Below, piece by piece: positions 22,615 through 57,940 of a stretch of 64,000 nt of DNA. Source of the stretch: Chrysomallon squamiferum (taxonomy: Eukaryota > Animalia > Mollusca). The notes beneath the pieces are model-generated. The model was not told the DNA's origin. It saw nothing but the letters and a program-made list of their open reading frames with translations, and made no database searches. The DNA lies in the NCBI GenBank assembly GCA_012295275.1, contig CM022677.1:5828001-5892000 (forward strand), in the 5' to 3' direction. A program made the position numbers and the translations under genes. Each line of letters begins with the position of its first letter. The stretch's first letter is position 1.

Positions 22615-25600
22615 TTTCAAAAGCAGTTTCTAATGTTTACATCTACACCTTTTTCACTCAGTGCTGTCACAATTTCTGTATTTTCGTGTTCAGCTGCTAG
22701 GTGTAAAACAGAATTTTCATCATTGTCTGTTAAATTAGGATCAGCTCCATGTTCCAGTAAATACAAAACTACTTTGTTCAAATATTCATGTCCTACAAAA
22801 TATAAAACTACTTTGCAAGGTTCGTACTTAACAGCTGAAAAAAGAGGAGTTTCACCTCAGCTATTCTTAATATTTACATCAAAACCTCGTACCACAGAGT
22901 GCCTAATTAAAATAGGATCAGCTCCATGTTGCAATAAATAGAAAACTACTTGAAATTTTTCATTGTACAGAAACTTATCACGTTCATCGTAAGTAACAGC
23001 TGAAAAAAGTGGAGTTTCACCTTTGATGTTTTTAATATTTACATCAAAACCTATTTCAATCAGTTTTGCCACAACTTTTATTTTTCCATATTTAGCCGCT
23101 AGGTGTAAAACAGAATTGTGATCATTGTCTGTTACATTAGGATCAGCTCCGTGTTGCAGTAAATACAAAATTATTTTACACTGTTCATACTTCAGAGATG
23201 GGTTAAGGTAAGGCCAACTAAGTGCTGTTAAAATAGCAGTTTCACCTCGACTGTTTTTAATGTTTACATCTGCACCTTTTTTAATCAGTGCTGCCACAAT
23301 ATCCATAGATGCATATCTAGCTGCTAAGTGTAAAACAGAATTTTTATCATTGTCTTTTACATTAGGATCAGCTCCATGTTCCAGTAAATAAAAAGCTACT
23401 TTGTTGAAACGATCAAACTCAGTTAAACACCAAGCTGCTTGGGTATCTTCCCAATGAACAGCTCTAAAAAGAGGAGTTTCACCTTTGATGTTTTTAATGT
23501 TTACATCAAAACCTTTTTCAATCAGTAATGACACAACTTCTATATATCCATGTTCAGCTGCTAGGTGAAAACAGAATTGTTATCATTGTCTGTTACATTA
23601 GGATCAGCTCCGTGTTGCAGTAAATACACAACTACTTTGCTTATTCTATTCCTAGTAGATCTCTCTATATTTCCGTAAGCAAGAGCTACGGAAAGAGGAG
23701 TTTGACCTTGGCTGTTTTTAATGTTTACATCAACACCTCTGTCAACCAGTTCTGTCACAATGTCAATAAATCCACATTTAGCTGCTAGGTGTAAAACAGA
23801 ATTATTATCATTGTCTCTTAGATTAGGATCAGCTCCGTGTTCCAGTAAATAAAAACACAATCTGTTCATATGCTCCTGTCCTGTTTCTGATAGATAGAAA
23901 AAGCATGTCTTCGTTTCATATTCAAGAGCTCTAAAAAGAGGAGTTTCACCTCGGCTGTTTGTAATGTTTACATCAGCATCTTTTTCAATCAGTACTGTCA
24001 CAAGTTCTATATTTCGTTCTCCGGCTGCTACATGCAAAAGAGAATTCCCATCTATGTCTATTACATTAGGATCAGCTCCATGTTCAAGTAAATAAAAAAC
24101 TACTTTGTTCTCTTTATACGTAACAGCTTTAAAAAGAGGAGTTTCACCTCGGCTGTTTGTAATGTTTACATCAAAATCTTTTTCAATCAGTACTGTCACA
24201 AGTTCTATATTTCGTTGTCCGGCTGCTACATGCAAAAGATAATTCCCATCTATGTCTTTTACATTAGGATCAGCTCCATGTTCCAGTAAATAAAAAACTA
24301 CTTTGTTCTGTTTATTCTCAACAGCTCTAAAAAGAGGAGTTTCACCTCGGCTGTTTGTAATGTTTACATCAAAATCTTTTTCAATCAGTACTGTCACAAT
24401 TTCTATATTTCCTTCTCCGGCTGCTACATGCAAAAGATAATTCCCATCTATGTCTATTACATTAGGATCAGCTCCATGGTCCAGTAAATACAAATCTACT
24501 GTGTTCTGTTTATTCTCAACAGCTCTAAAAAGAGGAGTTTTACCTCTAGTGTTTTTAACATTCACATCAACACCTGTTTCAATCAGTTCTTTCACAATTT
24601 TTATGTTTCCATGTTTAGCTGCTAGGTGTAAAACAGAATTGTTATTATTGTCTGTTAAATTAGGATCAGCTCCATGTTCCAGTAAGTAAAAAGCTTTTTC
24701 GTTCCAACAATTAGATCCTCCTTGTTTTAGTACTGTTACCTCTACATCATTATCAACAGCACTGAAAAGAGGAGTTTCACCTTGGATATTCTTAATATTT
24801 ATATCAGCATCTTTTTCTATCAGTTTTTTCACAATTTCTATATCTCCATGTTTAGCTGCTTCATGTAAAACAGAATTGTTATCATTGTCTGTTAAATTAG
24901 GATCAGCTCCACACTCCAGTAAATACAAAGCTACTTTGGTTTGTTTATGCTTAACACCTGTAAAAAGAGGAGTTTCACCTTGGCTGTTTTTAATATTTAT
25001 ATCAATACCTTTTTCAATCAGTGCTCTCACAATTTCAATATATCCGTCTTTAGCTGCTATGTGTAAAACAGAATTTTTATCATTGATTGTTATATTATAA
25101 TCAGCTCCATGATCCAGTAAATATAAAGCTACACTACATTTTACACTATCTAGAGATGAATAATGCCCATGGTCAGTAAGAGCTGTAACAAGGGGAGTTT
25201 CACCTCGACTGTCTTTAATGTTTACATCAGCATCTTTGTCAATCAGTGCTGTCACAATTTCTGGACTTCCATGTTTAGCTGCTTGGTGTAAAACAGAATT
25301 GTTATCATTGTCTGTTAATTTAGGATCAGCTCCATGTTGCAGTAAATACACAGCTACTTTACATTTTTCATCCGTCACAAATGTCTCAAAACGACAGAAA
25401 GGTAAAATCCTATCGAAATATTTACATTTAACAACTGCAAAAAGAGGAGTTTCACCTCGGATGTTTTTAACGTTTACATTAGCACCTTTTTCAATCAGTG
25501 CTGTCACAAGTTTTATATTTCCTTGTTCAGCTGCTAAGTGTAAAACAGAATTGTTATGATTGTCTGCTGAATTAGGATCAGCTCCATGTTTTAATAAATA

Positions 25601-27361
25601 TAAAGCTATTTCAATTGAGTCATTTTTCAGATGTAGATAACATTTATTGTCCTTTTTACATTTCATAGCTGTAATAAGTGGAGTTTCATCTTTATTGTTT
25701 TTTATATTTACTTCAGCACCTTTTTCAGTCAGTGCTGTCACAATTTCTATATTTCCATGTTCAGTTGCTAGGTGTAAAACAGAATTGTTATAAATGTCTG
25801 TTAAATTAGGATCAGCTCCACATTCTAGTAAACGTAAAGCTATTTCAGGACTGCTGTTGTATAAGGACAAATGTAGAGGAGTTTGTCCTTCAGTGTTTTT
25901 TACATTTATTTCAGCACCTTTATCTAACAGCTCTTTCACCAGATCTATGTCAATTTTAGATGCTATGTGTAAAACTGAATTCTTTTGTTTATCTGTTATG
26001 TTAATATCAGCACCATTTTCCAGTAAGAACAAAGCTACTTCCTTTCTGTGTGTCACTGCTTTTAAAGTTTTATGAAGTGGAGTTTCTCCCTCACTGTTTA
26101 CTGCATTAACATCAGCATTTCTCTTTATCAGTGATTTTATCATATCTATGTCTCCACGCAGAACTGAAATGTGGAGCGGTAAATCGGAAGGCAACAGACT
26201 AGGTTTAACTTCAAGCGATTCAGTTTTGAGAGGAATGTTGATGTCTATGATCATGAATGCATCAGGGATGTCTGGTGACATAATTTGCTGTTCAAAGTAC
26301 TGAATCAATTTCTCATTAACAGGTGCATTCATGTTTAGATCAGCTCCTTTATCAAGAAGACACTGAACAACATCTACACTGTTAAACATCACTGCTACTT
26401 TCAGTACTTCACTTTTCTTCCACTTGTCATTACATCTCTGCTCAATGAGAAAATTCACTGTATCAATACATCCCCACATTGCTGCTGCTAAAAGTACTTT
26501 ATCTTTGTTCTCATCATTTAAACAATCAGGTTTCAGTTTTACTATTTCTTTTATAACACTTGAAGTACTCTGACCAGCTGCAACGATAGCAATGTCTTTA
26601 GTTTTGTTTATTATATCAATGGTAACCAGTTTCTTAAAAAGATGACTTACATCAACATCTTTAATAGTCTTTGCCTTTTCAAAATGCAAATCACATTCCA
26701 CAATATGCCTGTCATGTAACAGAAATTTTATTTTTCTAAGAAACCTAATCAACAACAGTTTTACAGCTTTTATCTTGATTTCACTGTTTTCTTCCTCTTT
26801 GTTTATCATGTCAGCCAACAGACAGGCAATATTCATGTTACGTGAACAAATAGAAATATGTAACAAGTCTGAAATTACACACAGTTTTGTTTTCTTTTTA
26901 TTCTTGAACAATTCTCTAAGTATGATAACATTGTCTGTTTTTGAACCAACAGCTGCACAGAATGCATCATGTGTTGGAACAACACCTGATTTTATCATTA
27001 TCCTCACAATATCTTCATCACCAAAGAAACAAGATAAAATTAAAACTTTGTTTTTCAAATCTGTTTGTTCCATTTTACACAGATTTGATGTGAAACATTT
27101 TGACAATGTTTTTAGTCCATTTACAATGCAACGACTTGTAATAGATGATGTCTCTATAAAATTTTCATGAGCTTTCAAATACAGTTTTTCTCTGGAGTCA
27201 AATTTTGAATAATTGTCAAGAAGACATGAAATACTGCAAAATATTTCATTAGCACTGGAAACATTTACAAAAGATATATAACCGTATGGATATTTATCAT
27301 CATCAGAAGTATTTAACCCATAACTTTTTTTATATGGTTTCCTATTTAGTATTTCAGACAA
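22615..27361 (-). CDS. Helical linker plus ankyrin-repeat array (~16 two-repeat units plus degenerate N-terminal repeats) of the STAND-ANK gene; disrupted in this assembly
   Basis: ORFs 23561-27361 and 22857-23534 carry repeated GETPLF.A / YLL.HGADPN..D..NSVLHLAA..G..EIV..LIEKGADVNIKN. A 1-nt deletion at ~23567 (ctaggtg-aaaac versus ctaggtgtaaaac in the other units) separates them. TGA at 22857-22859 replaces the CGA of KNSRGETP, and ANK sequence continues past it to NIRNCF* near 22615. Confidence 0.95.
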
Positions 27362-28595
27362 CCTACCATAAAATTTTTTTCCTTTATGAGATATTTCAGA
27401 AACTCTTCATCTTTCAGTGATGGATGTGAAATAATTTCTATGAAATTCTCTGATGCCAGCAGGTCAGTAAATCTGCGAGCAAGAAAATCAAAGCAGTCAG
27501 GTCTCACATTCATTGTAATGTCACTTTTATTAGACACTCCAGGCGTCACAACATATTCTAACAACATGGAAACAGGACACACTTCTAGCAACTCTGCTGC
27601 TTTCTTTGGAAACTCTGATGAAAACATCAGAAACAAACAGTCAAACACAGACTGGTGAATAAATGTGTATTTATTGTCACAACACTTCAAATAGGTACCA
27701 CACATTGCATCAGCTGTTTTCTTGATATCTGTAAGATTAGTGTTTTTTACATTCAGACAGACTTGCTCTAGTTGTCTTACTAATTTCATTATGTCAGAGT
27801 CATTTTTAAATGGATCCAGTGAATCAATGCTGAGACTGCCTTGTTTGAACAAAATCATCAGTAGAACCAGGTAATTGAGCTGTAAAGATTTGTCTTTTTT
27901 CAAATTTTCCAGCCCTTGTTTGAGATATTCTATAGGTTTCTTAAAAAAGTCAACTCCTCTTTTCTGTGCATCACTTGAATTAACATAATACAAACACACC
28001 TGAGGAAATCCTAACTCTGTACATGAACTGTAAATGACAGCCTTTTTATCAGTTTCATCCATTTTAACATCCTTTTGTTTGAGATATTTGTTTAGAATTT
28101 CTTCCTTTTCATCATAAGTCAGACAACAGTCTTCACTCTGCAGATCAAGAACATGATTCTTTCTAAACAGATCAAATTCCTTTAAACTAGTTTCACTTTC
28201 TGAATATATTTGTTTTTTTAAAGTAATAATGCATTTCAAAAAACTATTCTGAACAAGATTCGAGATCTTTGGAAATTTGAGTTTCCATGAGTCTATAAAA
28301 TCTTTAACAAGATTAGTCTTACCAAATATATCATCAATGAGAACAACACACTTCTTATCTGTAGATACAGGGATGTCACTGAATTCAGAGTGATGAGTCA
28401 GCAAGTAAGATTCTCTTTTTTCTTCATTTTCTATCTGTCTCATCATGCTCAAAGCTAGAGTTGTCTTTCCTGAACCTGGACATCCTACTACAATCACAAC
28501 ACCATTCTTCTTCAAAAGTGCAACACCTCTTTTCTCTGCTCTTGTTTTAACATAGATACTCCAGTCAAATGAGTTTAACAGGAACCTGGTAGACT
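27346..28595 (-). CDS. nSTAND3-type P-loop NTPase domain (start of the large exon of an NLR-like STAND-ankyrin gene)
   Basis: Acceptor tacag at 28596-28600. Translation YVKTRAEKRGVALLKKNGVVIVVGCPGSGKTTLA (Walker A), VVLIDDIFG (Walker B), IIT, VLDL..LTYDEKEEIL, GFPQVC, DFFKKP, YTFIHQSVFD, which is the motif order of the nSTAND3 domains expanded in molluscs. Joins the ANK ORF by one extra base at the A7 run 27374-27380. Confidence 0.9.
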
Positions 28596-28827
28596 CTGTA
28601 ACACAACATTAAAAAAGAAAAGATATCTGTTATTAACTGTTTAGAGCATATTTTACTATTTAAATACAAATGAGACAACTTTTAACTACATAAGATGTGA
28701 AGTTTAATAAAAAAAAAAGGCAATTGTTTGCTCTCATAATTTTAGATGGTGTAAAAGAAGATATATAATTATCTTGTTGTTAATGAATATCTTTGAAAAC
28801 TATTTAAACAATAATAATAAAAAATAC

Positions 28828-28860
28828 CTTTGATATTGGATGCTCGTTCACCAGCCTTTT
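28828..28860 (-). CDS. 33-bp coding exon of the STAND-ANK gene (EKAGERASNIKE)
   Basis: tttcag|...AAAG|gtattt; phase 1-1, in frame with the NTPase exon. Confidence 0.75.
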
Positions 28861-28974
28861 CTGAAATAATATAGAAATAAAACAAATAAGTTTATATGAC
28901 TGATGTTGAGTAAAAGAGAATGATTAAAATGATCTCTACAATAACTCAGCACTATTCACGAAATAGTAAACATA

Positions 28975-29014
<40 letters not shown>

Positions 29015-29565
29015 ATTTTTTTTATTATTGTAACTGCTTTTATATAATTACTGCTACTATAATGAAAACTACTGCTTGTTTGTTATCACTAAATTATTTT
29101 TTATTGTTATTATTGTTATTAATATTGTTGTTGTTTTGCTATGATTATTGTTGCTACATGTACTTTGCACATTTCAGTATTTACAGGTAATAATAATGAC
29201 AGGGATGTAGTGTTGTTTAATTCATACTGAATTATATCAATAGTTTAAGAAGAAAATCTAGATCAGTTTAACATACATACACTGTGTTCCATGTGAATAA
29301 TATACTTGTGAGTGTGTGTGTGTCTCTGTTCAATACGTTGTTCTGTTTGTCTGCAGATATATGTGTGTGTATGTATGCTTTCTGTGTACATGTTCAGTAA
29401 GGATACATGTACATATATAATGTATATATTGTGTCTATGTATGTATGAGCATGTTTATATGTTCTTCAGTTCAAAGTGATAGAAAAGTACTAATGACTAC
29501 TGAGATGTGCCTTCTGTTATTTATTAAGCAGGTCGAAAAAAGGAAACTTTCACCTTTTAACTTAC

Positions 29566-29678
29566 CGGTATTAATAATTTTTTGTTGTCCAATAACAAAA
29601 TTACTGTCGCCAGATGCAGTCACGGAATTCTGAGCTAAGCTGACACTTATATTTTCTACCCTGACGGTGTTCTTCCAA
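29566..29678 (-). CDS. 113-bp exon WKNTVRVENISVSLAQNSVTASGDSNFVIGQQKIINT (RHIM-like motif)
   Basis: ttactcag|...ACCG|gtaagt. Only one frame is open, and its phase-1 end matches the 33-bp exon. Confidence 0.7.
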
Positions 29679-30090
29679 CTGAGTAATAGAAATTATTTAA
29701 ACTCACAATTTATAAATATAATTTCTAAAAACATTTTTATCTACATTTAGAGATATGACAGTGTACAGTATTAATTCAGTCTATATTAATAGTATTCCTG
29801 AATGAAACAATACCTTTTTATGTTTAAAAAATATGTTAATATTTTCAACTAATTATTGCATAAAATCATCAAATAATAAGAGATGTGTATTTTCTAACAA
29901 AAAACAGAACAAAATCTTTGAATTCTTAATTTATTATGAATATAAAACAAAAAAGTGTCACTTCTGAAAGCCTAAAGAATAAATAAATAAAAAGAAAAAA
30001 GAGAAAAAAAAAAAAAAATAAATAAAAAAAAGAAAAGTAGACAACAGTTGAAATACTTTATTATTAAAGGTATAAATAATGTTGTCATAC

Positions 30091-30153
30091 CCTCAGAGGA
30101 AGAAACATCTGTGTCTTCAGACATTTCTGAACTCTTTTCCTTATCCATATTGG
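30091..30153 (-). CDS. Probable start exon (ATG at 30148; MDKEKSSEMSEDTDVSSSE)
   Basis: catctcag|CCAATATG...GAGG|gtatga. It ends in phase 1 while the next exon needs phase 2, so a microexon, alternative acceptor or indel is missing from the model. Confidence 0.5.
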
Positions 30154-30314: not shown

Positions 30315-30414
30315 ACCATTTCCTGGTATACTCTTTCTGATTAACAACAAGTGATATTTCATTTAGACCTACCCACAGATAGTACTAACTATAGCAGATA
30401 TCAGTTGTTGAGCA
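30315..30414 (-). other. Probable 5' UTR exon of the STAND-ANK gene
   Basis: ttttcattttaacag| ... GGT|gtaagt, strong splice sites, no long ORF. Confidence 0.5.
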
Positions 30415-32467
30415 CTGTTAAAATGAAAACAGCTCAGACTGTATTCTCAGCTTTTGTTCTATAAATATAATCTTGAAATATTTTATAAAATAATAAAATC
30501 TAACTAGATTTTAATAAAAGTCCTCATTTTCTAAATAGTGATGTTAGATTGTTATATAAAAATAGTCATGAAAACATAACTATCACAACACTGCTAAAGT
30601 GAAAACTTAATACTGTTGTAATTAATTACTCTTACATCATATTTGAATCAGTTCATTAGAAAAAATTTATAACAATTAACTGATAATTATCACAAAGCAT
30701 TTGTAGGATATTTCCTCAATTGCCGAACTAAATTATGATATAATAATTACCACAATAATTATTCTATGTGATAGTTTAGTTTTGCTCACTTGGATATCAT
30801 CAAACATTTTATACACAATGGAAGTGGAATCAGCTCAGCACTGGGAATGACTTCAGTGATCATTTGACAAATCTAACATTTAACTGGACAGATGAGTTGG
30901 ATGTTGAAGGCAGTTGAATGTTTAATTGCCATTGATTCCTTTAACAACAGATGTAATATATGGCTGCAACTTTACATTGTGCATGTCTGATAAATTTAAC
31001 AGAGACTGAGAGACTCCATCATAGAGGGATAATTAGAGGGATACAAGGGAAGATTTCAGCAATGGAATTATTTTTAAATTTAGTTTCCTAAACCTTTCAA
31101 CAATTTGAGTTAATAAACAAGAATTACATTGCAAACAGCTACTATGAACTGTTGGTATCAGAATATTTGTTTCCCCTCACTTTTTTCAGGTGTAGTTCTA
31201 TATTCTCTTTGTGATAACTACTGTGTACAGTATGTATCTACTGAACTGACTAAATATCACTGTAAATAGGGATTCATAAATTGTAGATAGGTGGATAAGT
31301 TGCTGAGGAATACATTTGTCTTGAGAATAGGGATATCTTAGATTTTTTTTTTTACATGAAAGTGAAAACATTTATCCCTAAATCCATATATCGTTGATAA
31401 TTATTTTCAAAGATGTTGCACTGCGCCCCAATATTGTAATGAAAGTGCTACAATAAAACAGTTTTTTATGTTTTTGTCAAAATGTCAGGATTGGAATCAA
31501 TGGTCTGAACATGAAGTATCAATATACGTCCATTGACAAGACCCTTCATTTTGATTAAATCAATGATTATAATGATGAAGATTAACAAGGTCCTGCCTAG
31601 GTAACTGAAGGAAAATAGCCTGAGGATTATGGGGAAAAACAGAAAACCTTAGAAAAGAATAATTTGCAAGCAGTCCAGAGCTATTCAGGAAAAGATGGAT
31701 TGCTACATTACTGTTTCTCTGTTGATACTACCACAGTGTAAGTAGTAAAAGTGTCCAAGAAAGCCAGGAGAATATATTTCCTAAGTGAAAATGTGGCAGA
31801 AATTAAGGAGCCATTATTATTATTATTATTATTTTTATTAAATTCTGGAAAGACATGAGTGATGATTGTAAGAACTATAATTCCAATTGTGAAAAGTGTA
31901 AAATGATAAAACAAATAAGTTAACAACTGCACCTTTATCTTTTCAAGTTTATTATATATGTTTTTTCTTTTTCAAACAAATACTGTTGGAAATGACATAT
32001 GTATTATCATGACCTCAGTCTTCTAAACTCAGGTGTGCATCCAGGAAATGTAAGAGGAGATGCTAAGTAACCTGAAGAGCAGATCGGCAACTAGTGGAAA
32101 ATGTTCAGAGGATGAGCGTGACAGACATCAAGTTCTGCTAGAAAATTTTGAAAACTTGGGTGTGTTTGGAGACAAAAATTTCAGTTTGAATGTAATGAAT
32201 ATCACTGACAGGTTTTGATGCTTGATTTTATCAAAGAATTATGCTTATCACAATGTTCGTAGTCGTAAGACTTTAGCAGTACTAACTTTCACCAAATATT
32301 AGTTTATCTAAGCGTGGGTGGCGGAAACAAATATTCGTTCACCCAGGGGTACAACCATTTGCCGAATAGTTGTTCCTAGTGGAACAAGTATTCTTTCGCA
32401 CCGGTGCTATTTTTGATTATCCTAATTCCCCGTAATCAAAAACAAAGAAAACTTGTCAAACATATCA

Positions 32468-32640
<173 letters not shown>

Positions 32641-33119
32641 GAATAGACAGAATCCAAGGAATTGTATGTTTATTCGAATAAAAAAGAAAATGCATTACCA
32701 GTTTTCTTTAACATTTTATTTTCTGATACTTCACTTAAGAACATGCCGACATTTTAAATCACGTGGTTCTGTTTAATCACGTAAAATATGGACCAGGTTG
32801 CGGCTTGAACCTGAAATCTTAGTTAATAGAAGCAGTCTTCCGATTAGGGCAAAAGCATGCAGTAACTTGTCAGTCTAAACATATATAAGAATGCATACTT
32901 CAAACCACAAACATGGGTAAGTTGATTGCGGGGGGGGAAACTGACTGAGTTCAGCTCACATGCAGGTTAAACAACAGTTCACTTCGCTAACAAATTCTGT
33001 AATATGAATAAAAGTACATTTCTTTCGGTTTTCCTCAAGGGAATTATGAAATTCTTGAGGATTATCCAGTTGCTGCATGCAGCCATTTGATATTAACATC
33101 AAAATATGCCAATTTATCA

Positions 33120-33646
33120 CGTGTTGTTCCCCTTGGGTGGGGCGTGCGGCACTTTCGACGTGTGCAAAACGTGCACGCCGTCGTGGCGAGTGTGGCAAAA
33201 ACGTTTCCAGCATTTACCAAAGGTGCTGCACCTTTTGAAAATGCGTTTGAAAAAAAAACGAGAAAATTTTCAAAAACATGTGCGTTTTTTGTGCACGTGT
33301 CCGAAACGAGTTGTTCCCCTTGGGTGGGGCGTGCGGCACTTTTGAACCATTGCCCCACTAACCCGATTTTTCCCACGTGCTCGGAAAAAGTTATTGCACT
33401 TTGAAAAAGGTACCCCTAGCATTTTCAACGAAACTTGAAAAAATTCGATTTTCAAAAGTTGAAAATCCGTGTGGCACTGTTCCGTTTGGTCGGGAAAAAT
33501 ATTTCGACGTGTGCAAAACGTGCGCGCCGTCGGGGCGAGTGTGGCAAAAACGTTTCCAACATTTACCAAAGGTGCTGCACCTTTTGAAAATGCGTTTGAA
33601 AATAAAACGAGCAAATTTTCAAAAACATGTGCGTTTTTTGTGCAAA
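33120..33646. repeat. CpG-rich composite repeat, A-B-A-C-B arrangement (probably transposon subterminal or satellite)
   Basis: A = ttgttccccttgggtggggcgtgcggcactt at ~33124 and ~33311. B = ~142 bp tttcgacgtgtgc...tttttgtgca at ~33153-33295 and ~33502-33644. Confidence 0.85.
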
Positions 33647-33671
33647 AAGCTTTTTCTTCGTATATACTTGC

Positions 33672-34363: not shown

Positions 34364-35665
34364 AAAAAAAAAAAAAAAAAAAAAAAAATTGAGATTACTC
34401 ACATCATATTAGAATGAATTCATTTGAAACATTTATGACAATTAACTGATACTTATCACAAAGTATTTGTAGGATGTTTTCTAAATTGAAGTTCTGAAAT
34501 ATATCTATAAAATAATTATCACAATAATCATACCATTGATATACTTTCTTTTATTTTAAGTATAATAATTAGTAGAATAATGATATCAATTTATAGCTCA
34601 GTTTTGAAGTAAATATAATAATTATACTAAGATATATATTAGTTTTGTAATCAATATTTATTTTATACTAAGATATATATTAGTTTTGTAATCAATAGTT
34701 ATTTTATGTTATATCTTAGTTTTGTAGTAAACGTACTAATTATCAGAACAGTTGTAGTAAATATGATAATTGTATCAATAATTAATCATAATTGTATCTT
34801 AGTTTTTTTCAATTGTAGTAAATATAATAATTATCACAACAGTTATATATTAATGTTGTAATAAATATAGTAATTATCAGAATTATTAGGAACAACTAAA
34901 TTATATTATTAGTGTTAACATTTGCATCAAATTACATATACAAAATAAATGTATAGATAATATCTGAATAGGTTTAATTATACTCTTACTGTAGTAATAT
35001 ATACCTGGAGAAAAGTTAAGCACTAAGATAATGAGTGACAACATGTAACAACTAATTACAACTATGTGAGAAGCCAGTGTATCAAGTCTCCATGTTTTTT
35101 CTCAAACTGCAGTATGCACAGATATCAAATATGGATTTTTGACTCAATAGCTCAATTATTCATAGTCAACTTGGCACAATGGTGGACATCAGAAACACAA
35201 AGGTGACAGATAATAAGAATACATTCAACAGGTCAAACCTACAGAACATCAGCTTGACAACAATTAACACTCATGAGTTCATTAGTGACCTCCAACAGGC
35301 TACATCCAAAACAAAGCTTTAACACTTCTGCCTTGGCCAGTCATGAGTCCACTTTTGAATCCACTTGAGCACATTTGTGTATATCAAACATTTTATATAG
35401 AATGAATGTGGAATCAGCTTAGCACTGGGAATGGCAATAGTTCATTTGACAAATCCAACATTTAACTGTAGACATGAGTTAGATGTTGAAGTCAGTTGAA
35501 TGTTTACTTGTCATTGAACCCTTTAACTACAGATGTAATCTAGAAACTCAAAGTAACATTTTCTCTCTAAAACAATTTCTTAAACTATTTTAATTCTGCC
35601 ACTCCACACTCTTGAATGATTTTCTTAGTGTTAAATAGTACTTGATAATTATGAGACAATACTGT

Positions 35666-37094: not shown

Positions 37095-37935
37095 CTTACT
37101 TATGTTGTTACAATTCAGTTTAACCCATCTTTAGATTTTAGCTGTTTCATGTTAAACCAGTTTTCTGACACTGACCATACAACTCTTCAATCCTGTCAAC
37201 AGAACAATACAAAACTTACATACTGATTTGTTTTGCTTCTTAAATTAATACTGTCAAGTATTACATTTTCTTTTATTATTATTATGAAATAATTGCTGTC
37301 ATATGCCCAAAATATTAATTAAAAATTTTAAAAAAAGTTTTAAAAATTAAAAATAAATGTGCTATAACAGCTGTCTTTCAAAGTATCAGAAATCATAAAC
37401 AGACTTAAAACTGATGCTTCAAATAAAATTGTATTTATTTATTTATTATCAATGTGCATGGCTCTGGTTAGTTTACAAAATAAAATTACATGAATCAAAT
37501 GTGATAAAATAAAGAACTCCAAACCTTTACAAAAACAGATCAGCACTACTTACTATTATATTTGTAACACTAGACTTGTTTCAGTCATTGTTTTGATTGC
37601 ACACACGTTACAGAGATAGCATTTTATACCTAAACCAAGTGAAAACTAAAACTGTTCATGAAAAATTGAGTGAATCTCTGCTGCCATTTAGAGATATAAA
37701 CTTAAAATTAACCACAGAAAAAGAGATGAATTCACATTTATAAATAATTTACTGATTTACTCATCAGCTCTGTTCGTTGTTCATTATAAAACTGACTGCA
37801 GAATCACATATATACATTACTCTCAAAATATTTACCTGCTTACAATTCAGTTTAACCCATCTTCAGTATGTTAAGCACGTTGTCTGTCACTGACTATACA
37901 ATTCTTCAGTCCTGCCAACAGAACAATACAAAATA
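37095..37935 (-). other. Two paralogous exon-like segments (~37100-37192 and ~37836-37911), possibly upstream UTR exons
   Basis: Both share ttttgtattgttctgttg(a/g)cag acceptors and gatgggttaaactgaattgtaa, and end at GT donors. Confidence 0.4.
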
Positions 37936-39759: not shown

Positions 39760-40822
39760 AATTATTATATGAAATTGTATTTGCATGTCTCATGTATTTA
39801 TCTTGTCAACTTTTTCTCGCATTTAAAAATATAGGATCACTACATTCAAATATACAGTGATATCATCTCCAATTTTGTTAAGATTACAAATATGACATTT
39901 TCTATTTTCTTTTAGAATATTAGACCATGGTCCACTTTTACTAGGAAGTTTAGCATTCGAGGTTCTAAATTTACATAACACATTAACTTTCTTTTTTTGA
40001 AAGTAAGATAGTTTTCTAATTTCAATCATTTTAAAAACAAAATATAATTAAAACCCTTTGAAGACGTGTCAGTTTGATTTTTCCATATTTGTTGATATTC
40101 ATCAGGTAAATATTTTGGATATCGTTTCACGTAACCATCTAACATTATCAAAGTTGTGATATGTCCATATATATGTTAAACCACAATCATCTAAAATATT
40201 TTTTACAAATCTGTTCAAGAAGAGTAGCTAACATGCATTAAATAATATAGGTGTGAGGAAATCTTGTTTTGGTTTTTCAAGTGCCTTCAAAAGGTTATCA
40301 TTCTTACATTTATAGAAATACAAAGAGGATACCGTCCTCGATCATAAACCAGGGGTACATTTAGTAACATTTAATAAATACTTACAAACTTTCATATGGA
40401 GTCTTTCTATTAGTTGTACATTTGCAAAACCCCATATTTTACAACCATACAATAAAACTCGCTGTATTAGTTTGTCAAATAAATGAAATACACAGTTGAT
40501 GGAGAGATTATTCTGACGACTTTCAGCTATTAGGCTATGCATAGCTTTCATTGCTTTGTTATATTGTTTTCTTACGCTGTAAATGAATAGACGGTTTCTT
40601 GTAAAATGTATGCCAATTATGTTTATAGTTATCTACTATATCAATAAACTCTCCATCAAATTTAAATATATAATCACTAGTTTTTCTCCTTTTACCAAAA
40701 ATCATTATTTTAGTTCTATTTGTATTAACTTTAAGTCTCCATTGTCGGCAGTAATTGGCAAAAATGTTAAGATTATGTTGTAGAGCATCCGGTGATTCTG
40801 CTAACAGTATTGTATCATCCGA
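39760..40822 (-). mobile_element. 5'-truncated, degraded non-LTR retrotransposon (LINE RT C-terminal half plus Cys/His motif; RTE-X-like, clade tentative)
   Basis: ORFs read SDDTILLAESPDALQHNLNIFANYCRQWRLKVNTNRTKIMIF, LFDKLIQRVLLYGCKIWGF..IERLHMKVCKYLL and LCKFRTSNAKLP..RKCHICNLNKIGDD; many frameshifts. Confidence 0.9.
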
Positions 40823-41267
40823 CGCAACATGCACAGGTTACACTGCATGATTTCTCTTCTATTTAACGTCACGCGTTCCACGTATGGTTTGCCTCGAAGA
40901 AAACCTCAGCTTGACAGTTTGACCTTTGACTTCAGCATTTAATAAAGATGTTTTATAATCCACACAATTTGTTTTTATCTTTGAGGTAACAGTTTCAGGT
41001 CGTGTCACACTCGAGTTGCCTCGGCTGAAATCTTAACACTTAGACTAAATAAAACAGATTTGCATACAAGGTAAGAAATAGATAAATAGAACATAGGGAT
41101 AGTGGGGCAGTATGTACCAACAACATACAATGAACAATAATATCTTGCTTACTCCAGAGTGTCAAATTAATCATTTAAATTTACTTACTTCAATCATGTT
41201 TAAGAATTTTGATTAAGCATTTAAGTAAGTAATGAAAAAAATTGATGTGCTAATGCCCAACAAATTC

Positions 41268-43508: not shown

Positions 43509-44690
43509 GTGGTTGTTATTTACATCTTCGGAACATAAGATTGAATCATTCGATATGTTTTTTTTACAAATGACAATGATATAGACGCATAATAATCTGA
43601 CTATTTTATAAGATAACTGAACATAGCATTCATTATTATTTTTACAAACTGCTCTTTTATCAACGTACACATCGCATCCATTATTGGTGTTTCGTTTTCA
43701 TTTTATGTTGCTGTTGTTGTTATAACCTGGTTTACTGTTAAACAGATACACAATCAACAGTCACAGCTAATAACAGTATAGTACAGACGTGCTTACCCGA
43801 GAAGAGATGGAAGTAAAACTGCAACTGCTTAGACTAACAAATTCACAGAAAAACATATGTCGTCTGCTTGTTCTGTCACTCATCAGCTTGAATACATTGA
43901 GTGATTTTGTTAAAAGACGACATGTCACAGGTTTGAGACTTACTATTATCTCTCTATCAAAAGTATTTTGGTTGCTGCTATTGTTTATGTTGTTATTACT
44001 GTTGTTGTTGTTTTGTTGATGTCATAATTAGTATTATTGTTGTTGTTTTTGTTATTATTATCATATTTGTTTATCTACCTACTTATTTGATTTTTTTATT
44101 ATTGTTTATTTTTTATTATATTTATTTTTGATATATACATCAGTCAAAAGACATATAAAACAACTACATATATATTCTGTTTATAGTCATACACATAAAA
44201 TAAAATAAACAAATAAATACCTCAAATAACAAAAGTATTCGAGGAAAAAAATTACGAAGTTCCTCAGACAGAAACGTTTCTGTGCTTTACTGATTGTTTT
44301 TCTATATTAATTAATTATTTTATCTACTTACTTAGTTACTTATTTATTAACTTATTAATTTAAATTCTATATTTCTACATACAACATGAATAACTGTTAC
44401 ACGACTAATTTGCACGTCTCATAGTTTTGACTCTGTATTTCCTAGTACAGTTCGTTCTCTATAAAGGTTTCACATTGTGTCCACAATCATCCACATCTGT
44501 TCTCTGGCTATTGAAGCTAAGAAAAGTTTTTGCATTATTTATTGCATGTTAAAAGCGACCCTGCAAACATACAGAAAATAAATCCTAGATCTGGACTTGT
44601 GTTTTTATTAATTTATTATTTTCATATTTCGTTTCATTTTATACATACATACATACATACATACATACATACATACATACATTCATACAT

Positions 44691-44734
<44 letters not shown>

Positions 44735-44999
44735 AGACCGTGTGTGTATATGTGTGTGTTTGCGGGTTATTTTCTGTCTACTTACAGTTGTTTTGTAGCT
44801 GTATGTTTTCTGCAATTCGTGTACATGTGTGTATGTTTGCTTATATTTGTGAATGTTATGTATGTATATGAGTTTCTACGGACGTGCTTCCGACCACTCT
44901 AGTTTAGAAAATTAAACAGTCACAGTAAATGAATGAAGGAAACGCAGACGGAAAATCAGAGTTTTTATACATTGTAAGAAAAATATAATGATGATATAT

Positions 45000-45312
45000 A
45001 AATTTCGAAACAAAGTTTTGTTCGAATTATGAAAGGAAAACATCATTTTGAAGTGAAATCTATGCTCTTTCAGATGAGATTACTTGAGCCTTTTTAACGC
45101 GAATGAGAACAATGCGGGCCAGAAACGTTCATTTTCTGATACGTAGAGAGGCATGCCACGCTGCTTGAGTGCGTGAAAGGTTGTGATTCTTCAAACAATA
45201 ATTAAAAATCACACATTTTCATAGAACAAAAACAAACACTGAAAGGAGGAAATGCGCAGTGCAGACGCCAATACCAAATTTATGCGTCTGCAAGAGGGAG
45301 TGATCCTTCTAG
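45000..45312 (+). mobile_element. Non-autonomous Helitron-like 3' terminus (second copy ~50160-50478)
   Basis: Stem-loop tgcagacgc-N15-gcgtctgca (45260-45292) followed 16 nt later by CTAG (45309-45312) and then T. The internal part is shared with 34232-34363. Confidence 0.5.
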
Positions 45313-45579
45313 TAAATTTCAGTATGTACATATTGTGATAAAAAAATTATTTTAATGGTTTTTCACTATTAAAAATATTATTTGTTATAATATTAATAAT
45401 AATAATAATAATAATTTTTCAAAGAAACTAGGAAAACATATATCCTTTACTATTATTATGATTATTATTAGTATTACTATTGTTGCTGCTGTTGTTGTTG
45501 TTACTGTTATTATTACTGACATCTTCCGAACAAATGATTGTACGATATCATTTTTTAAAATCTTCAAATGAAATTATAC

Positions 45580-45617
<38 letters not shown>

Positions 45618-46581
45618 AATAATAATAATAATTTAATAAATAAATAATTAAATACATTTTATTACACATTCTGAAAACAAACAGTATTTACTTTGATCTC
45701 GAAATTATTATTATTATTCAGAACATATGACTTTCTGTAGGATATCCTTTAAAAAAATATAAATGCTATATGATATGCATACATAATTAAAAAAAAAGAA
45801 TAATTATTTAAAAAAACATTAACATTTACAATTCAAAAACTCTTCACTGAATCATTTATTTATTTCAAAACCTATTTTATTATTTAATTAAGAAAATAAT
45901 AATCACTTGAAAAGTATTATTTTTTTTTTTTTTTTTTTTTTTGGCTTACTCGTGTCTACGTGACAAAACTCACGTTGTTTCTCAACTGTTTACGTCGCGT
46001 GACAATGATCTCACCTTAAAGTAACACTGACGTTGTTGATTTTTTCATTAAATTTTAATAATGAAAACGAATAATATTTATCCGTTGATTTAATTGATCG
46101 TATGGATGTAATTTAGTAAGTAACTCAATTTTGATTTTAAAAAAATCGAGACATTTGATAATGCGAAAGTTTCATAAACTTGTCCAAAATAATATTAATA
46201 AGAAGGAATTCCATACTAAACGATCAGAGATAAAGGGGGGGAGAAAAAAAAAAGCACTGTTAAAAAACCAAAAATGAATAAGAAAAAAAACAACAACAAC
46301 AAAAAAGACTAATAAACATACAGTAAAAGCCAGGAAGAAAAAAATAAAATAAAATAAAATAAAAAAGTAAATAAAGAAAAACAAAGAAAGATAAGTAATA
46401 AAGTTCATTTGACATATCTGTCCTGAATAAGAAACTAATCATGATTATTCTATACGTGTTTTAACTTCCTAAACCGACCCATTTACATCATTAATATTAA
46501 TTAATTTTAGTTTCCGTAGATATGTATTCCTCAAACGACTACTTTATGACATAACTGAACCACATATTTGATTGATTTATT

Positions 46582-46640
<59 letters not shown>

Positions 46641-46789
46641 CATCATCATCATACAACTTTTGTTTATACAAGATTTAGTATTATTCAATGAAAAAAAATA
46701 CAATAAAAGTTAATGAAACAAATAAATAATTATTTATTCATTTATTTATTTACTTATTTGTTCGTTTATTTGTTTTTTTATAATATATT

Positions 46790-47190
46790 TTAATTAGTTC
46801 GTAGCTGTTGATGTGAGTATTATTTTTAAATGAAAACGCAAACGTGAGCCATAAAAAAGAATAAAATAAAATAAAATAAAGTAATTAATTTTATCTTGAG
46901 AAATAAATAAACATTTAACAGTCACTACTAGTATTAGTGTAGTAAAATGTTTGCCTACCTGTGGATCGAAACTGAAGTAAAACTCGAATCTTGTCAACTA
47001 ACGAACTGACACAAACTCGACGCCGTCTGCTCGCTCTGTGAATCGTCCGCTTAGATACGTCATGTGATATTTTTGTAAAACGACACGTGACAGATTTATG
47101 CTTAGTGTGTTACTCTGGTTGCTTGGTGACAATGTAAACACGATCAGTTCTAATTACAGCATTTTTCAAACTGGTTTGTATACTTGCTCA
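46790..47190 (+). promoter_or_regulatory. Repeated promoter-like module A (E-box + RFX X-box-like + forkhead site); copies at ~51975-52370 and ~58005-58420, diverged at ~54175-54245 and ~57090-57190
   Basis: acgacacgtgac at 47080, gttgcttggtgac 47118-47130, tgtaaaca 47133-47140, then aaactggtttgtatac. The motifs are retained in the diverged 58-kb copy. Confidence 0.45.
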
Positions 47191-48070
47191 AAAAAATATG
47201 AGCAATATCAGTTTATTCTAGTAAGATAAATAAAGCTTAAAATAACAGACAGACAGACAGACAAACACAAACACAATTATAATTATTAACATTGATTTAG
47301 TACATCGAGCAAGGACGACTCCTCTGTTTTCGTGTTATAGAAGTCCGGGCAGACATTGTTTATTTTATTATTTATTTTATTTCTTTCTCACTTTGCGTTT
47401 AGTCTAGATTCAACCCTCTTGAAATGTTCCTACTAAGATACACTCGTAAAGATAATTTTATTTTATAACCTTCCATCCAACCCTACATTTCACATTAACT
47501 TATTCATTCATTCATTCATTCTTCAGTTAAATTATGTGCCAATTTCAGATAAAAATATTTGATACGCATATAATTGTAACAGTGATTATAATGATACATT
47601 TATTTTTTGTCGTACCAATATGCACCAGAGTTTCTTTCACTTTAAAGTGAGTCTGTGTCAATAAGAACAGATACTGTCTAGAAAAAAATCTTTTATGCAT
47701 CCAAGTTATTATTTGTTTGTTTAGAGCGACCTTTCATTACACAGAACAAAGTTTGACAATAACACTGTTACGAAACATTTGACTACTGTAGCTCCTCCCA
47801 GCTGAAATCGTAACGTTTTTTATTATTTTTTATTCTACACATTGTTGTCGTTCTGGGATATAGAACTTTTCATTATATGTATTTTGCTTCGTCGAATCAT
47901 AAATATTCGAAAAATAATATGTCTAAGTGATTTACATTTGTGAATTGTTGTATTTATATTTGTGACTTTCTTCAAACTGGCTCTTGAAAGAGAAAATCAT
48001 ATTCAATGTTGTTATTCTTGATTTTCAGACAATTTTATTCCTCCAAAAGTGAAATGTCTTTTTATACACG

Positions 48071-48103
<33 letters not shown>

Positions 48104-48342
48104 TGTTAGTGTTATTGTTATTATTATAAAGCCTGCAATAATAATAATAAATAAATAAATACACATCTCCTAGCAAATAAACTTTCTACCAACACGTGTT
48201 TATCTTTTTTAAATTATAATAAAGAGAAAAAAGAAATAACAAACATATTAAAAACAATAAGAATAAATTCCTCTGCTCATTTTGAATGCTTTAAAATCAG
48301 AAACTTCATTGTTGGAAAATAATGCGATTTCTTCAGTTGCGA

Positions 48343-50550
48343 TTTTTTACAAATGACAATGATATAGACGCATAATAAACTATTTAAAAGAAAAAATCAC
48401 TCTCGTAGCTCAACACAAAACGCTCCATTAAACCATTTATTTTTGCAACAAGTCAGATTTCATTTTCTATAATGAAAATAATAAACACTTATAAAACAAT
48501 AAAGTCTGTTTCTTTCCTAATTCATGTCTACCTGACAAAACTCACGTTATGTATTTTAAACTGGAGCGTGTCTAGATTTCGTGAAAATGATTTTGCTTCT
48601 TAATTGATCACAATACTGTATTTTAATAAATAATTTCATTTAATGAAAAGAAATTTAACAATAAACTAACTTGAATCTCTTATGACCGTTTGTCAAAAAT
48701 AATTTTGAAAAGTTAATTTCAGTTAGGTAGATTTTTAAATGGTCAGTTATTCCATAGACATTTTATTTCTCCATCGACTATTTTATAAGATAACTGAACA
48801 TAGCATTCATTATTATTTTTACAAACTGCTCTTTTATCAACGTACACAGCGCATCCATTATTGGTGTTTCGTTTTCATTTTATGTTGCTGTTGTTGTTAT
48901 AACCTGGTTTACTGTTAAACAGATACACAATCAACAGTCACAGCTAATAACAGTATAGTACAGACTTGCTTACCCGAGAAGAGATGGAAGTAAAACTGCA
49001 ACTGCGTAGACTAACAAATTCACAGAAAAACATATGTCGTCTGCTTGTTCTGTCACTCATCAGCTTGAATACATTGAGTGATTTTGTTAAAAGACGACAT
49101 GTCACAGGTTTGAGACTTACTATTATCTCTCTATCAAAAGTATTTTGGTTGCTGCTATTGTTTATGTTGTTATTACTGTTGTTGTTGTTTTGTTGATGTC
49201 ATAATTAGTATTATTGTTGTTGTTTTTGTTATTATTATCATATTTGTTTATCTACCTACTTATTTTATTTTTTTATTATTGTTTATTTTTTATTATATTT
49301 ATTTTTGATATACACATCAGTCAAAAGACATATAAAACAACTACATATATGCTGTTTATAGTCATACACATAAAATAAAATAAACAAATAAATACGTCAA
49401 ATAACAAAAGTATTCGAGGAAAAAAATTACGAAGTTCCTCAGACAGAAACGTTTCTGTGCTTTACTGATTGTTTTTCTATATTAATTAATTATTTTATCT
49501 ACTTACTTAGTTACTTATTTATTAACTTATTAATTTAAATTCTATATTTCTACGTACAACATGAATAACTGTTACACGACTAATTTGAAAGTCTCATAGT
49601 TTTGACTCTGTATTTCCTAGTACAGTTCGTTCTGTATAAAGGTTTCACATTGTGTACACAATCATCCACATCTGTTCTCTGGCTATTGAAGCTAAGAAAA
49701 GTTTTTGCATTATTTATTGCATGTTAAAAGCGACACTGCAAACATACAGAAAATAAATCCTAGATCTGGACCTGTGTTTTTATTAATTTATTATTTTCAT
49801 ATTTCGTTTCATTTTATACATACATACATACATACATACATACATACATACATACATACATTATATATATATATAAACACACACACACGAGACCGTGTGT
49901 GTATATGTGTGTGTTTGCGGGTTATTTTCTGTCTACTTACAGTTGTTTTGTAGCTGTATGTTTTCTGCAATTCGTGTACATGTGTGTATGTTTGCTTATA
50001 TTTGTGAATGTTATGTATGTATATATGAGTTTCTACGGACGTGCTTCCGACCACTCTAGTTTAGAAAATTAAACAGTCACAGTAAATGAATGAAGGAAAC
50101 GCAGACGGAAAATCAGAGTTTTTATACATTGTAAGAAAAATATAATGATGATATATAAATTTCGAAACAAAGTTTTGTTCGAATTATGAAAGGAAAACAT
50201 CATTTTGAAGTGAAATCTATGCTCTTTCAGATGAGATTACTTGAGCCTTTTTAACGCGAATGAGAACAATGCGGGCCAGAAACGATAGTACGTTCATTTT
50301 CTGATACGTAGAGAGGCATGCAACGCTGCTTGAGTGCGTGAAAGGTTGTGATTCTTCAAACAATAATTAAAAATCACACATTTTCATAGAACAAAAACAA
50401 ACACTGAAAGGAGGAAATGCGCAGTGCAGACGCCAATACCAAATTTATGTGTCTGCAAGAGGGAGTGATCCTTCTAGTAAATTTCAGTATGTACATACTG
50501 TGATAAAAAAATTATTTTAATGGTTTTTCACTATTAAAAATATTATTTGT

Positions 50551-50583
<33 letters not shown>

Positions 50584-51768: not shown

Positions 51769-51818
<50 letters not shown>

Positions 51819-53251: not shown

Positions 53252-53284
<33 letters not shown>

Positions 53285-53520
53285 TGTTAGTGTTATTGTT
53301 ATTATTATAAAGCCTGCAATAATAATAATAAATAAATAAATACACATCTCCTAGCAAATAAACTTTCTACCAACACGTGTTTATCTTTTTTAAATTATAA
53401 TAAAGAGAAAAAAGAAATAACAAACATATTAAAAACAATAAGAATAAATTCCTCTGCTCATTTTGAATGCTTTAAAATCAGAAACTTCATTGTTGGAAAA
53501 TAATGCGATTTCTTCAGTTG
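48343..53520. repeat. Copy 2 of the tandem segmental duplication
   Basis: Near-identical to 43560-48340, apart from an extra ~400 bp at 48379-48776, an 11-bp indel near 50284, scattered SNPs and microsatellite length differences. Confidence 0.97.
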
Positions 53521-57010: not shown

Positions 57011-57635
57011 CACACATAATAAAACTCTGGACTAACACGCAGATGTTTCATGTTTAATCTTGTCTATGTACTTCTAACTGCAGTTCGTTCTAGGTCACCC
57101 GTTTATTTCAATACAGTGTATTGCTCTTGTTACCCTGTGACGTCACTGAATGTTCTAATATATCACGTTTCTGAAAACTGGTTTCAATACGAAGTCAGAA
57201 AGCAATAGAGCGTGACAGCGGGTTGGACTACATCAACGATTATAATAGATAATAATATCGTGTTTAGAATGAAGACAGAAATGAAATAAACATTTTAAAT
57301 TTACTTCTTTCTCTCATTCATAAGAATCTTTCCAAATTAATTAAACACACTACCTCACTTCTACTAAATTCACATTCTACATTATTTGATAATAAATAAA
57401 TAAAGAAATAAAGAAATAAATAAATAAAGAAGAAGAAGAAGAAGAAGAGCAACAACAGCAACACAATTTCAGTAACAAAATAACTTTTGCAAGGAAAGAA
57501 AGATGAGAAGCAAAAAAAAAAAAAAAAAAATACTTGTACAACACAGTCAATCAATGTAATTTAACGTGCAAAACATTCATCAAAATAGTTTTTAATAAAA
57601 AATGTAATCCATTATTCGAACTTTATCGAAGAGTT

Positions 57636-57940
57636 TAACACCTTTTAAGTTTCCACAATGAGCTGCTAGATGTAAAACAGAACTGTTTTTGTTCTCTGTT
57701 GTATTAAAAAGTGTCACACCTCTTTTCTCTGCTCTTGTTTAGTCATAGACACTGACTGCTACGCTCTGTATCACAGCATTTAAGAAAGTAATATCTATTG
57801 TTAACCGTTTTCAACATTTTTAACCTTTTAAATATAAAAAAATATGTTTTTACTTGACACCAGGGGTGAAGTTTTTTCTTTTGAAAAATGGAATAGTTTA
57901 TTGTCATAATTTTAGTTGATAAGAATTTCTTACGTTGTTA
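57636..57940 (-). pseudogene. Internally deleted remnant of a STAND-ANK paralog
   Basis: 57707-57940 matches 28513-28750 (acacctcttttctctgctcttgttt = TRAEKRGV, plus the acceptor and intron). It is joined directly to an ankyrin fragment NTTENKNSSVLHLAAHCGNLKGV (57636-57706). Confidence 0.8.

Follow-up and report, generated by a model that had tools for sequence, protein, structure and literature searches.

Gene architecture and the nSTAND3 NTPase

The window, the whole 64,000-nucleotide stretch of DNA analysed here, carries a minus-strand gene that encodes an nSTAND3 NTPase and, after it, 32 ankyrin units (Table 1). The domains and the repeat anatomy are directly established, as are the closest relatives of the NTPase-ankyrin core (Gigantopelta aegis paralogues, 46-48%) and one decayed paralogue that lies 29 kb from the gene. 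An earlier note on this DNA had named the NTPase as nSTAND3, and this is borne out: Pfam nSTAND3 (PF20720) matches with 92.1 bits (E 3.8e-26, cut-off 27.2), Walker A (GCPGSGKT) and Walker B (VLIDD) are intact, GxxGxGKT and DD are invariant in all five alignment rows, and the domain did not score as a non-STAND ATPase. A tree places the NTPase inside the Gigantopelta paralogues (support 0.995).

Table 1. Features of the locus and its surroundings in window coordinates
Feature	Position	Strand	Basis
Whole gene	22615..30153	-	
Ankyrin array, 32 units	22615..26185	-	Pfam and repeat anatomy
Collapsed A unit and in-frame TGA near 22858	22857..22925	-	Frame map, unit alignment
Frame shift 2, within ankyrin unit 25	23561..23579 (near 23570)	-	Frame map; error and real mutation both possible
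Helical linker (26-31% identity with Gigantopelta paralogues) containing degenerate ankyrin-like units	26186..27369	-	Homologue comparison
Frame shift 1, at a stretch of seven A; probable assembly deletion	27370..27385 (near 27377)	-	Contig and homologue comparison
First part of exon E4, with the nSTAND3 NTPase and subsequent helical region	27382..28595	-	Pfam, Walker motifs, fold search
Exon E4 acceptor	28595	-	Splice-site sequence
Exon E3, 33 nt, basic linker	28828..28860	-	AG/GT ends, predicted
Exon E2, 113 nt in window	29566..29678	-	AG/GT ends, predicted
Candidate RHIM-like beta-motif, core FVIG, glycine 55 residues ahead of P-loop	29570..29623	-	Profile and spacing comparison
Exon E1, 63 nt, acidic Ser-rich peptide, likely start ATG at 30148	30091..30153	-	AG/GT ends, predicted
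Second likely non-coding 5' exon, 78% like the exon at 37836..37911	37100..37192	-	Frames, read depth
Probable non-coding 5' exon, every frame interrupted by stops	37836..37911	-	Frame and homology check
Remnant of a collapsed paralogue, in which the intron end, the E4 acceptor and the first NTPase codons run directly into one ankyrin piece	57634..57918	-	Sequence comparison

The nearest folds to the NTPase model are Avs5 (Z 12.4, rmsd 10.7, 243 residues aligned), Dark (Z 11.9) and ZAR1 (Z 11.6). Beyond the NTPase, where helical and winged-helix domains would follow, model pLDDT is below 50 from residue 276 on; the Avs5 alignment runs over residues 1-281. DnaA (Z 11.9) ranks level with Dark and ZAR1. 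A PDB sequence search with the NTPase returned no relative, Foldseek gave generic AAA+/STAND matches only, two ESM Atlas searches gave no usable match and PADLOC weak matches only; metagenome scans yielded nothing beyond one distant locus, 24% identical and itself divided over two frames.

The ankyrin array and family expansion

Within the array, constant 33-residue A units alternate with B units that carry a variable loop of 5-23 residues after helix 1. The earlier estimate of some 30 or more repeats holds in that the array is present; 24 whole units precede the second frame shift, 30 precede the stop, and the count of 32 requires reading through both late breaks. The repeat block is built of 198-nt units with 89% matches. 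Near-identical repeat blocks beside variable positions, with repeat loss, are also features of the fungal HIC NLRs, which include NACHT-ANK proteins (PMC13449251). In the snail, in contrast, mean repeat identity is 0.60 and 0.67 (60-67%) at the amino acid level, a different measure from the T-REKS Psim of 0.7 or more used as the HIC NLR criterion, and long loops are inserted in every second repeat. The repeat frameworks contain no stops against 5.7 expected, and 14 of 61 codons are invariant against 4.7 expected; omega in the repeats is ~1.1. Codon models did not separate surface or binding-face positions from core positions (classes assigned by DARPin numbering), and positive selection is not shown. 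Among the 24 variant sites listed for E4, chosen by depth from 544, 18 are non-synonymous.

In two DNA runs the NTPase bins are 15-35 times deeper than the intron bin (a summed depth, not a copy number), and RNA/DNA depth is 0.33-0.67 for the NTPase bins against 0.0002-0.0003 for satellite. The family thus looks multi-copy and transcribed. The proposal of a non-canonical innate-immune sensor is supported to this extent, as an NLR-like member of an expanded, fast-changing family and not of a single-copy, slowly evolving one. Judged from its domains, the predicted protein would not be a canonical animal NLR (NACHT-LRR with a death fold): it has ankyrins instead of LRRs, its Pfam NACHT score is 21.1 bits (cut-off 26.7), and no upstream domain matched.

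Upstream exons and frame breaks

Spliced 5' exons leading into the NTPase exon had been proposed, and the predicted exons do have AG/GT ends and agreeing phases for E2-E3-E4. The E1-E2 join, on the other hand, is out of frame: E2 is one base short, and the frame coming from E1 meets a stop, unless the window has lost one base. In two RNA runs E1-E3 have little or no cover, and no joint of this chain was seen among the 15 of 110 splice joints listed; no short transcript-derived protein turned up in a search over the start of the NTPase. Bins over the nearer of the two non-coding 5' exons are multi-copy in the DNA runs and covered in the RNA runs. A candidate exon of 22 nt was also spotted by eye near 30336.

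As the earlier note had stated, neither a death fold nor a TIR domain was found ahead of the NTPase: these and HEPN had no match among 73 frames lying upstream as far as 47.1 kb (frames of at least 32 residues, low-entropy ones excluded) or by tblastn with 164 homologues, and an Avs5-type SIR2 effector was found neither at the N-terminus nor in the upstream frames. Might the gene nonetheless encode a non-immune ATPase scaffold, or begin further upstream with a folded domain? The fold search cannot tell STAND from DnaA/Orc-type AAA+, and an acceptor precedes E1, whose frame stays open ahead of the ATG. However, no domain matches upstream, stops interrupt every frame of the candidate upstream exons, and expansion with shuffled effector domains is typical of immune families; we regard this explanation as very improbable.

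The large coding exon E4 consists of three frames plus a tail rather than one open frame. Over 26942-27420, the span of shift 1, a contig from an RNA run (97% identity) has one extra base, and homologues are continuous across the region. Over E2, two DNA-run contigs from two studies have extra bases relative to the window. Because public contigs carry an extra base over both spans, shift 1 and the 113-nt length of E2 are probably assembly errors. Of the eight X1 pieces listed, three exceed the window by one base over 2,954 bases and none is shorter; indels were read from the best 12 of 50 rows, the exact positions of the extra bases not being among them. The TGA near 22858 is likely the protein's true end, with two orphan units left beyond it.

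The breaks would also fit a pseudogene of recent origin in a family evolving by birth and death, its shifts and stop being real and its leader motif decaying. Four lesions and a collapsed unit are consistent with this, as are an omega near 1 and the collapsed paralogue close by; the TGA and the unit deletion are not explicable as run-length errors, and the RNA contig over shift 1, being only 97% identical, may stem from a paralogue. Against it stand the extra bases over E2 in DNA contigs of two studies, a deletion bias elsewhere in the window, an open frame of 3.8 kb in DNA of 33% GC, and a stop that trims only the last two units. We consider a pseudogene unlikely, at something like one chance in four or five, and the exon chain with an intact protein of ~1,980 residues probable.

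A candidate RHIM-like leader

Other family members carry HEPN, death, caspase or SAM domains in the leader slot. Here the slot holds the E2 motif, with Ser/Glu/Lys-rich flanks by translation. A beta-type motif with a fixed glycine lies 50-64 residues ahead of the P-loop (55 here) in nine of the 12 gastropod and bivalve homologues chosen by hand, some with the cores IQIG, VQFG or TQIG; VQFG and TQIG are natural tetrads in RIPK3. The E2 motif aligns gap-free to three abalone proteins. A profile built without the window ranks the E2 exon sixth of 42,066 window peptides (9.8 bits; 38 of 5,000 shuffles), and a PDB search with the family profile has the RIPK3 RHIM as its sole match (E 1.0). The 12-13 profile rows were chosen by eye for RHIM likeness, so that the profile, PDB and spacing results are partly circular.

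Automated controls are weaker, with p ~0.01-0.1 for the family. In automatic runs seeded with RIPK3, 11, 1 and 2 of 100 shuffles matched the family; E2 was not significant in two of the three settings and reached 82 of 3,000 in the third. An unguided EM motif search overfitted (log-likelihood 223 against 204-218 in six shuffles). Compared pairwise with 79 leaders, E2 was equalled by 199 of 1,000 shuffles, and the RIPK3 probe alone chose a different register in it (p 0.05). The canonical RHIM tetrad is (V/I)Q(V/I/L/C)G and the cryptic core VxxG; FVIG matches neither and lacks the RHIM glutamine. The canonical tetrad occurs in 2 of 49 homologue clusters against 0.4 expected. Pfam RHIM gave matches in 0 of 7, 0 of 7 and 0 of 19, in searches whose HMMER filters drop weak short matches, and PDB sequence searches with E2, an E2 and abalone profile, and the best single RHIM look-alike found no RHIM. 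Motif and folded domain were not clearly exclusive (12 of 38 against 1 of 11, p 0.13). Among the top six-frame matches listed for the 64-kb window, no annotated partner with a matching motif appeared.

It is possible, though we think it doubtful, that the sensor is intact and its leader an ordinary disordered linker, the receptor acting through its NTPase oligomer or through a paired paralogue with HEPN, caspase or death domains, and the motif likeness reflecting composition. The missing canonical tetrad and Pfam match, the weak automated E2 scores, and the many homologue models with nearly no leader or a folded one fit a linker. Yet all three seeded runs picked the same E2 register, the spacing matches, the motif fills one exon whose donor is the strongest of the region, and it recurs across gastropods and bivalves. 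Homology of the E2 motif with the family motif is probable on sequence comparison. E2 is among the weaker examples; the IQIG, VQFG and TQIG homologues are better cases.

The RHIM-like N-terminus of the earlier note is retained as a position-matched beta-motif that recurs in mollusc nSTAND3 proteins, without the canonical core. Our preferred explanation, tentative and at slightly under even odds, is that the gene, in which an nSTAND3 NTPase leads into a long and variable array of ankyrins, probably belongs, intact or damaged only very recently, to an expanded gastropod family of NLR-like immune sensors, and that its short leader probably contains a divergent RHIM-like peptide that would recruit a partner by beta-strand stacking.

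Relation to known receptors and possible signalling

How would such a receptor signal? Fungal NLRs have been shown to pass signals from receptor to effector through amyloid, and the same has been proposed in bacteria. Going by known STAND proteins, binding of a foreign ligand to the ankyrin arm would be followed by exchange of ADP for ATP in the NTPase and by oligomerisation. Clustered leaders would seed a partner, e.g., a RIPK1-like kinase or CARD-RHIM adaptor, ending in NF-kB signalling or cell death; a working RHIM is reported for zebra-mussel RIPK1. The suggestion of an amyloid-templating sensor is better backed than from sequence alone because the motif recurs at a matching position in other mollusc proteins; set against the absent glutamine and the automated controls, amyloid signalling by the leader is plausible, unproven and perhaps a one-in-three prospect.

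Molluscan nSTAND3-ankyrin proteins have already been published, as has an amphioxus RHIM-NACHT protein, and the earlier description of a fungal or bacterial-style layout overstates novelty. The former, bivalve proteins among them, are catalogued in supplementary tables (Kaur et al., 2021, PMC8195603); these proteins (G. aegis XP_041355986.1 and paralogues) share the NTPase clade, ankyrin C-terminus, lineage expansion and swapped N-termini. The rows examined carry TRADD-N, and the passages and 12 of 13 files searched mention no RHIM-like leader. Amphioxus BF82280 and fungal NWD2/HET-S likewise have, where a death fold would sit, a disordered leader with a short motif, followed by a STAND NTPase and repeats (Kajava et al., 2014, PMC4262963). 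BF82280, however, is a NACHT protein, whereas the snail has nSTAND3, a non-canonical tetrad and no matching effector gene found in the window. Among animals, this amphioxus prediction (PMC4262963) is the only known case of a STAND receptor with a RHIM, and our literature search found no paper on a RHIM-like leader of molluscan nSTAND3-ankyrin proteins. With the mammalian RIPK1/RIPK3 RHIM and the arthropod cryptic RHIM (PMC13506858, PMC12119088) the snail core shares hydrophobic-x-hydrophobic-Gly and an Asn/Ser/Gln-rich beta pattern; it differs in having no glutamine and Phe first, and falls under every profile threshold.

More speculatively, and in our view unlikely as a whole, molluscs may possess a large undescribed class of nSTAND3-ankyrin receptors signalling by amyloid templating. 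In gastropods and bivalves alike, RHIM-derived leaders would stand in for death, HEPN or caspase domains, diverged variants such as the FVIG leader would wire receptor subsets to separate partners, and the loops in alternate repeats would supply antibody-like variability. If it exists, a phylum-wide leader set would be the missing intracellular sensor layer upstream of RHIM-bearing mollusc RIPK1 and would account for the CARD-RHIM gene in a bivalve virus. The leader hypothesis is testable with short peptides.

The top structural match, Avs5 (SIR2-nSTAND3-repeats; bioRxiv 2025.07.08.663546; PDB 9nc9, 9jap), shares the nSTAND3 switch and variable C-terminal repeats. It is bacterial, with a fused SIR2 enzyme and TPR/Sel1/PPR-type repeats, whereas the snail gene has ankyrins and no enzyme.

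Domain Architecture and Nearest Relatives

In this stretch of AT-rich animal DNA the gene is encoded on the minus strand, and its large exon E4 falls into three open frames. The first scores 92.1 bits with Pfam nSTAND3 (cut-off 27.2), staying under the Pfam cut-offs for both NACHT and NB-ARC, and its Walker A and Walker B motifs are both intact, which bears out the STAND NTPase of the earlier note; the remaining frames are ankyrin arrays (Pfam). A structural model of the NTPase region (mean pLDDT 57, low-quality beyond residue 275) has Avs5 as its nearest neighbor (Z 12.4), with Dark, DnaA and ZAR1 behind it and the four spanning roughly 1 Z unit. The top protein matches are Gigantopelta aegis paralogues (46-48%), and a FastTree analysis of 44 rows, our selection out of 164, places the NTPase inside them (clade support 0.995), which points to a related gastropod as the probable host. 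The locus is a real member of the mollusc nSTAND3-ankyrin expansion already known (PMC8195603).

Features of the window
Feature	Position	Strand	Content
E4 frame	27346-28608	-	open frame, nSTAND3
E4 frame	23561-27406	-	open frame, ankyrin
E4 frame	22857-23579 + short tail	-	open frame, ankyrin
Collapsed paralogue	57634-57918	-	copy of the end of the last intron plus the initial NTPase codons, fused directly to a single ankyrin piece; 67% to 28511-28748, ankyrin piece 79% to 24590-24662
Tandem duplication, ~4.8 kb	43595-48339; 48773-53520		97.9% identity
Satellite-like repeat	33100-33650		GC-richer, inserted upstream of E1
Reverse transcriptase scrap	40562-40837	-	RVT_1, E 2e-5; further related fragments around 55.3-55.7 kb and 62.9-63.2 kb
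Duplicated intron pieces, 5' region	30625-30960; 34394-34541 / 35369-35542		80-84%

Integrity of the Gene

All exon ends are proper (E1, 63 nt; E2, 113 nt; E3, 33 nt; E4). For the proposed splicing of 5' exons into the NTPase, E2, E3 and E4 would join in phase; the E1-E2 join is short by one base. E2 is covered end to end by a single contig in each of two DNA studies, and both are longer than the window there (274 letters on 273 bases in one; 494 on 492 in the other, where one surplus letter is shared with the neighboring intron piece). Shift 1 is located within a run of seven A, where an RNA-run contig aligns 480 letters to 479 bases at 97% identity to the window and homologues are uninterrupted. 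Of the eight X1 contig pieces listed, three are one letter longer than the window and none is shorter; one X2 piece is two letters shorter. The extra letters and the continuity of homologues through shift 1 favor assembly deletions in the spans of shift 1 and the short E2; this evidence does not bear on shift 2. Both the TGA and the collapsed unit ahead of it look real, and they cost the protein its last two ankyrin units only. Restoring three bases would yield a frame of 5,946 nt (~1,980 aa). Two look-alike exons farther upstream have stops in all frames, which suggests the E1 ATG as start codon. A domain search upstream of the gene found none, in agreement with the claimed lack of a death-fold or TIR domain. 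The copy in the window is probably intact.

The Ankyrin Arm

The array holds 32 units, as the claim of some 30 or more repeats would have it, although 24 are whole ahead of shift 2 and 30 lie ahead of the TGA. Constant A units of 33 aa alternate with B units. The loop that follows helix 1 in the B units ranges over 5-23 aa (at least 14 aa in 10 of 16) and differs in sequence nearly everywhere. Modeled from the single sequence, the arm is predicted to be a solenoid (pLDDT 79), and the stretches of low confidence mostly coincide with these loops. Such an arm of alternating, loop-bearing units is unusual. DNA identity between units is 70-97%, and a 198-nt block is repeated 3.9 times at 89%. With broken units excluded, the frameworks show 0 stops vs. 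5.7 expected and 14/61 invariant codons vs. 4.7 expected, so the array has diversified while still coding. Omega among frameworks is ~1.1, with 0.2 rejected, and diversifying selection is suggested; codon models did not separate face from core position classes.

A Recurrent Leader Motif

Among 79 non-bacterial leaders of at least 35 aa each (49 clusters), a hydrophobic-x-hydrophobic-Gly motif with an Asn/Ser/Cys-rich strand ahead of it recurs by eye in Gigantopelta, Haliotis, Potamilus, Sinanodonta, Solemya and scallops, and three abalone copies align gap-free with E2. Under a 12-row profile of hand-picked rows built without the window, E2 scores 9.8 bits (38/5,000 shuffles) and ranks 6 of 42,066 six-frame window peptides; leave-one-out recovered 8 of 10 training clusters. 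The motif glycine stands 55 residues before the P-loop in E2 and 50-64 in 9 of 12 homologues. A 13-row profile matched a sole PDB entry, the RIPK3 RHIM (E 1.0), and a RIPK3-only probe at p ≤0.02 found 4/49 leaders vs. 0/49 in two control regions (binomial p 0.017); at p 0.05 its 5/49 leaders were not significant.

Unguided motif discovery in the leaders failed. In seeded runs at three settings, shuffles were as good in 11, 1 and 2 of 100, E2 being significant in one setting with an identical register in all. Pairwise scores of E2 against the leaders were not significant, nor was exclusivity between motif and folded domains (12/38 vs. 1/11, p 0.13). The FVIG core of E2 matches neither the published RHIM tetrad nor the VxxG core (sources: PMC12452177, 10.1101/2020.01.06.895854, PMC13506858 and PMC12119088), and Pfam RHIM had no match in any run. 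By these measures the leader in the window does not belong to the RHIM family. What stands of the RHIM-like N-terminus is that the motif is probably a real family motif, RHIM-like in character, of which E2 appears to hold a divergent copy; that this leader is itself RHIM-like is likely, if weakly so. The family's best test case is the Solemya velum homologue P0122, whose leader of 80 residues contains both a VQVG and an IQIG tetrad, each canonical.

Proposed Mechanism

By analogy with characterized STAND receptors (for Avs5, 10.1101/2025.07.08.663546), a foreign ligand would bind the ankyrin arm and the NTPase would oligomerize, allowing the leaders, now clustered, to template a partner protein; we infer all steps beyond the domain anatomy in this way. 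Molluscs do have candidate partners: in the four sources cited above, a zebra-mussel RIPK1 is reported to require its RHIM for full NF-kB activation, and bivalve CARD-RHIM proteins are copied by an iridovirus. The top six-frame hits in the window included no annotated partner. The gene would work like NWD2 or the amphioxus RHIM-STAND-repeat protein (PMC4262963) only if the amyloid step holds. No description of RHIM-like leaders on mollusc nSTAND3 proteins was found among the papers listed by searches outside subscription journals; Figure 1 and the supplement of Kajava (PMC4262963) could include mollusc examples. Fungal NLRs with high internal conservation (PMC13449251) offer further comparison.

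Family and Paralogues

At E 0.001 a profile search for the family finds 4,456 cluster representatives; at 1e-30 it finds 473. Across 43 proteins scanned, homologue N-termini include HEPN, death, caspase, SAM and DUF4559 domains, and four probably bacterial matches carry restriction-endonuclease domains there. In P0032, a homologue, a caspase domain is fused immediately ahead of nSTAND3-ankyrin. Three homologous gene models (P0022, P0153, P0130) have two nSTAND3-ankyrin units per chain, which may be genuine doubles or tandem genes that annotation has merged. The Gigantopelta paralogue P0001 has at residues ~90-250 a leader of ~16 ten-residue Asn/Gln/Gly/Thr-rich repeats, a beta-solenoid or amyloid candidate.

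A single-copy family, named earlier as counting against the immune-receptor reading, is contradicted by NTPase bins 15-35 times deeper than the intron bin in two DNA runs (summed contig depth, not copy number). Their RNA/DNA depth is ~1000x that of the satellite, whose DNA depth exceeds 30,000 times the intron bin. Given both depths, sequences at least 90% like the NTPase are many and transcribed, and expression refers to the family, not to the window copy. Since the E2 bin is close to single-copy depth and one RNA contig places 178 letters on the NTPase start and its first 276 letters elsewhere, paralogues seem to have other leaders. Elsewhere in the window, the 4.8-kb tandem duplication is either recent or an uncollapsed haplotype.
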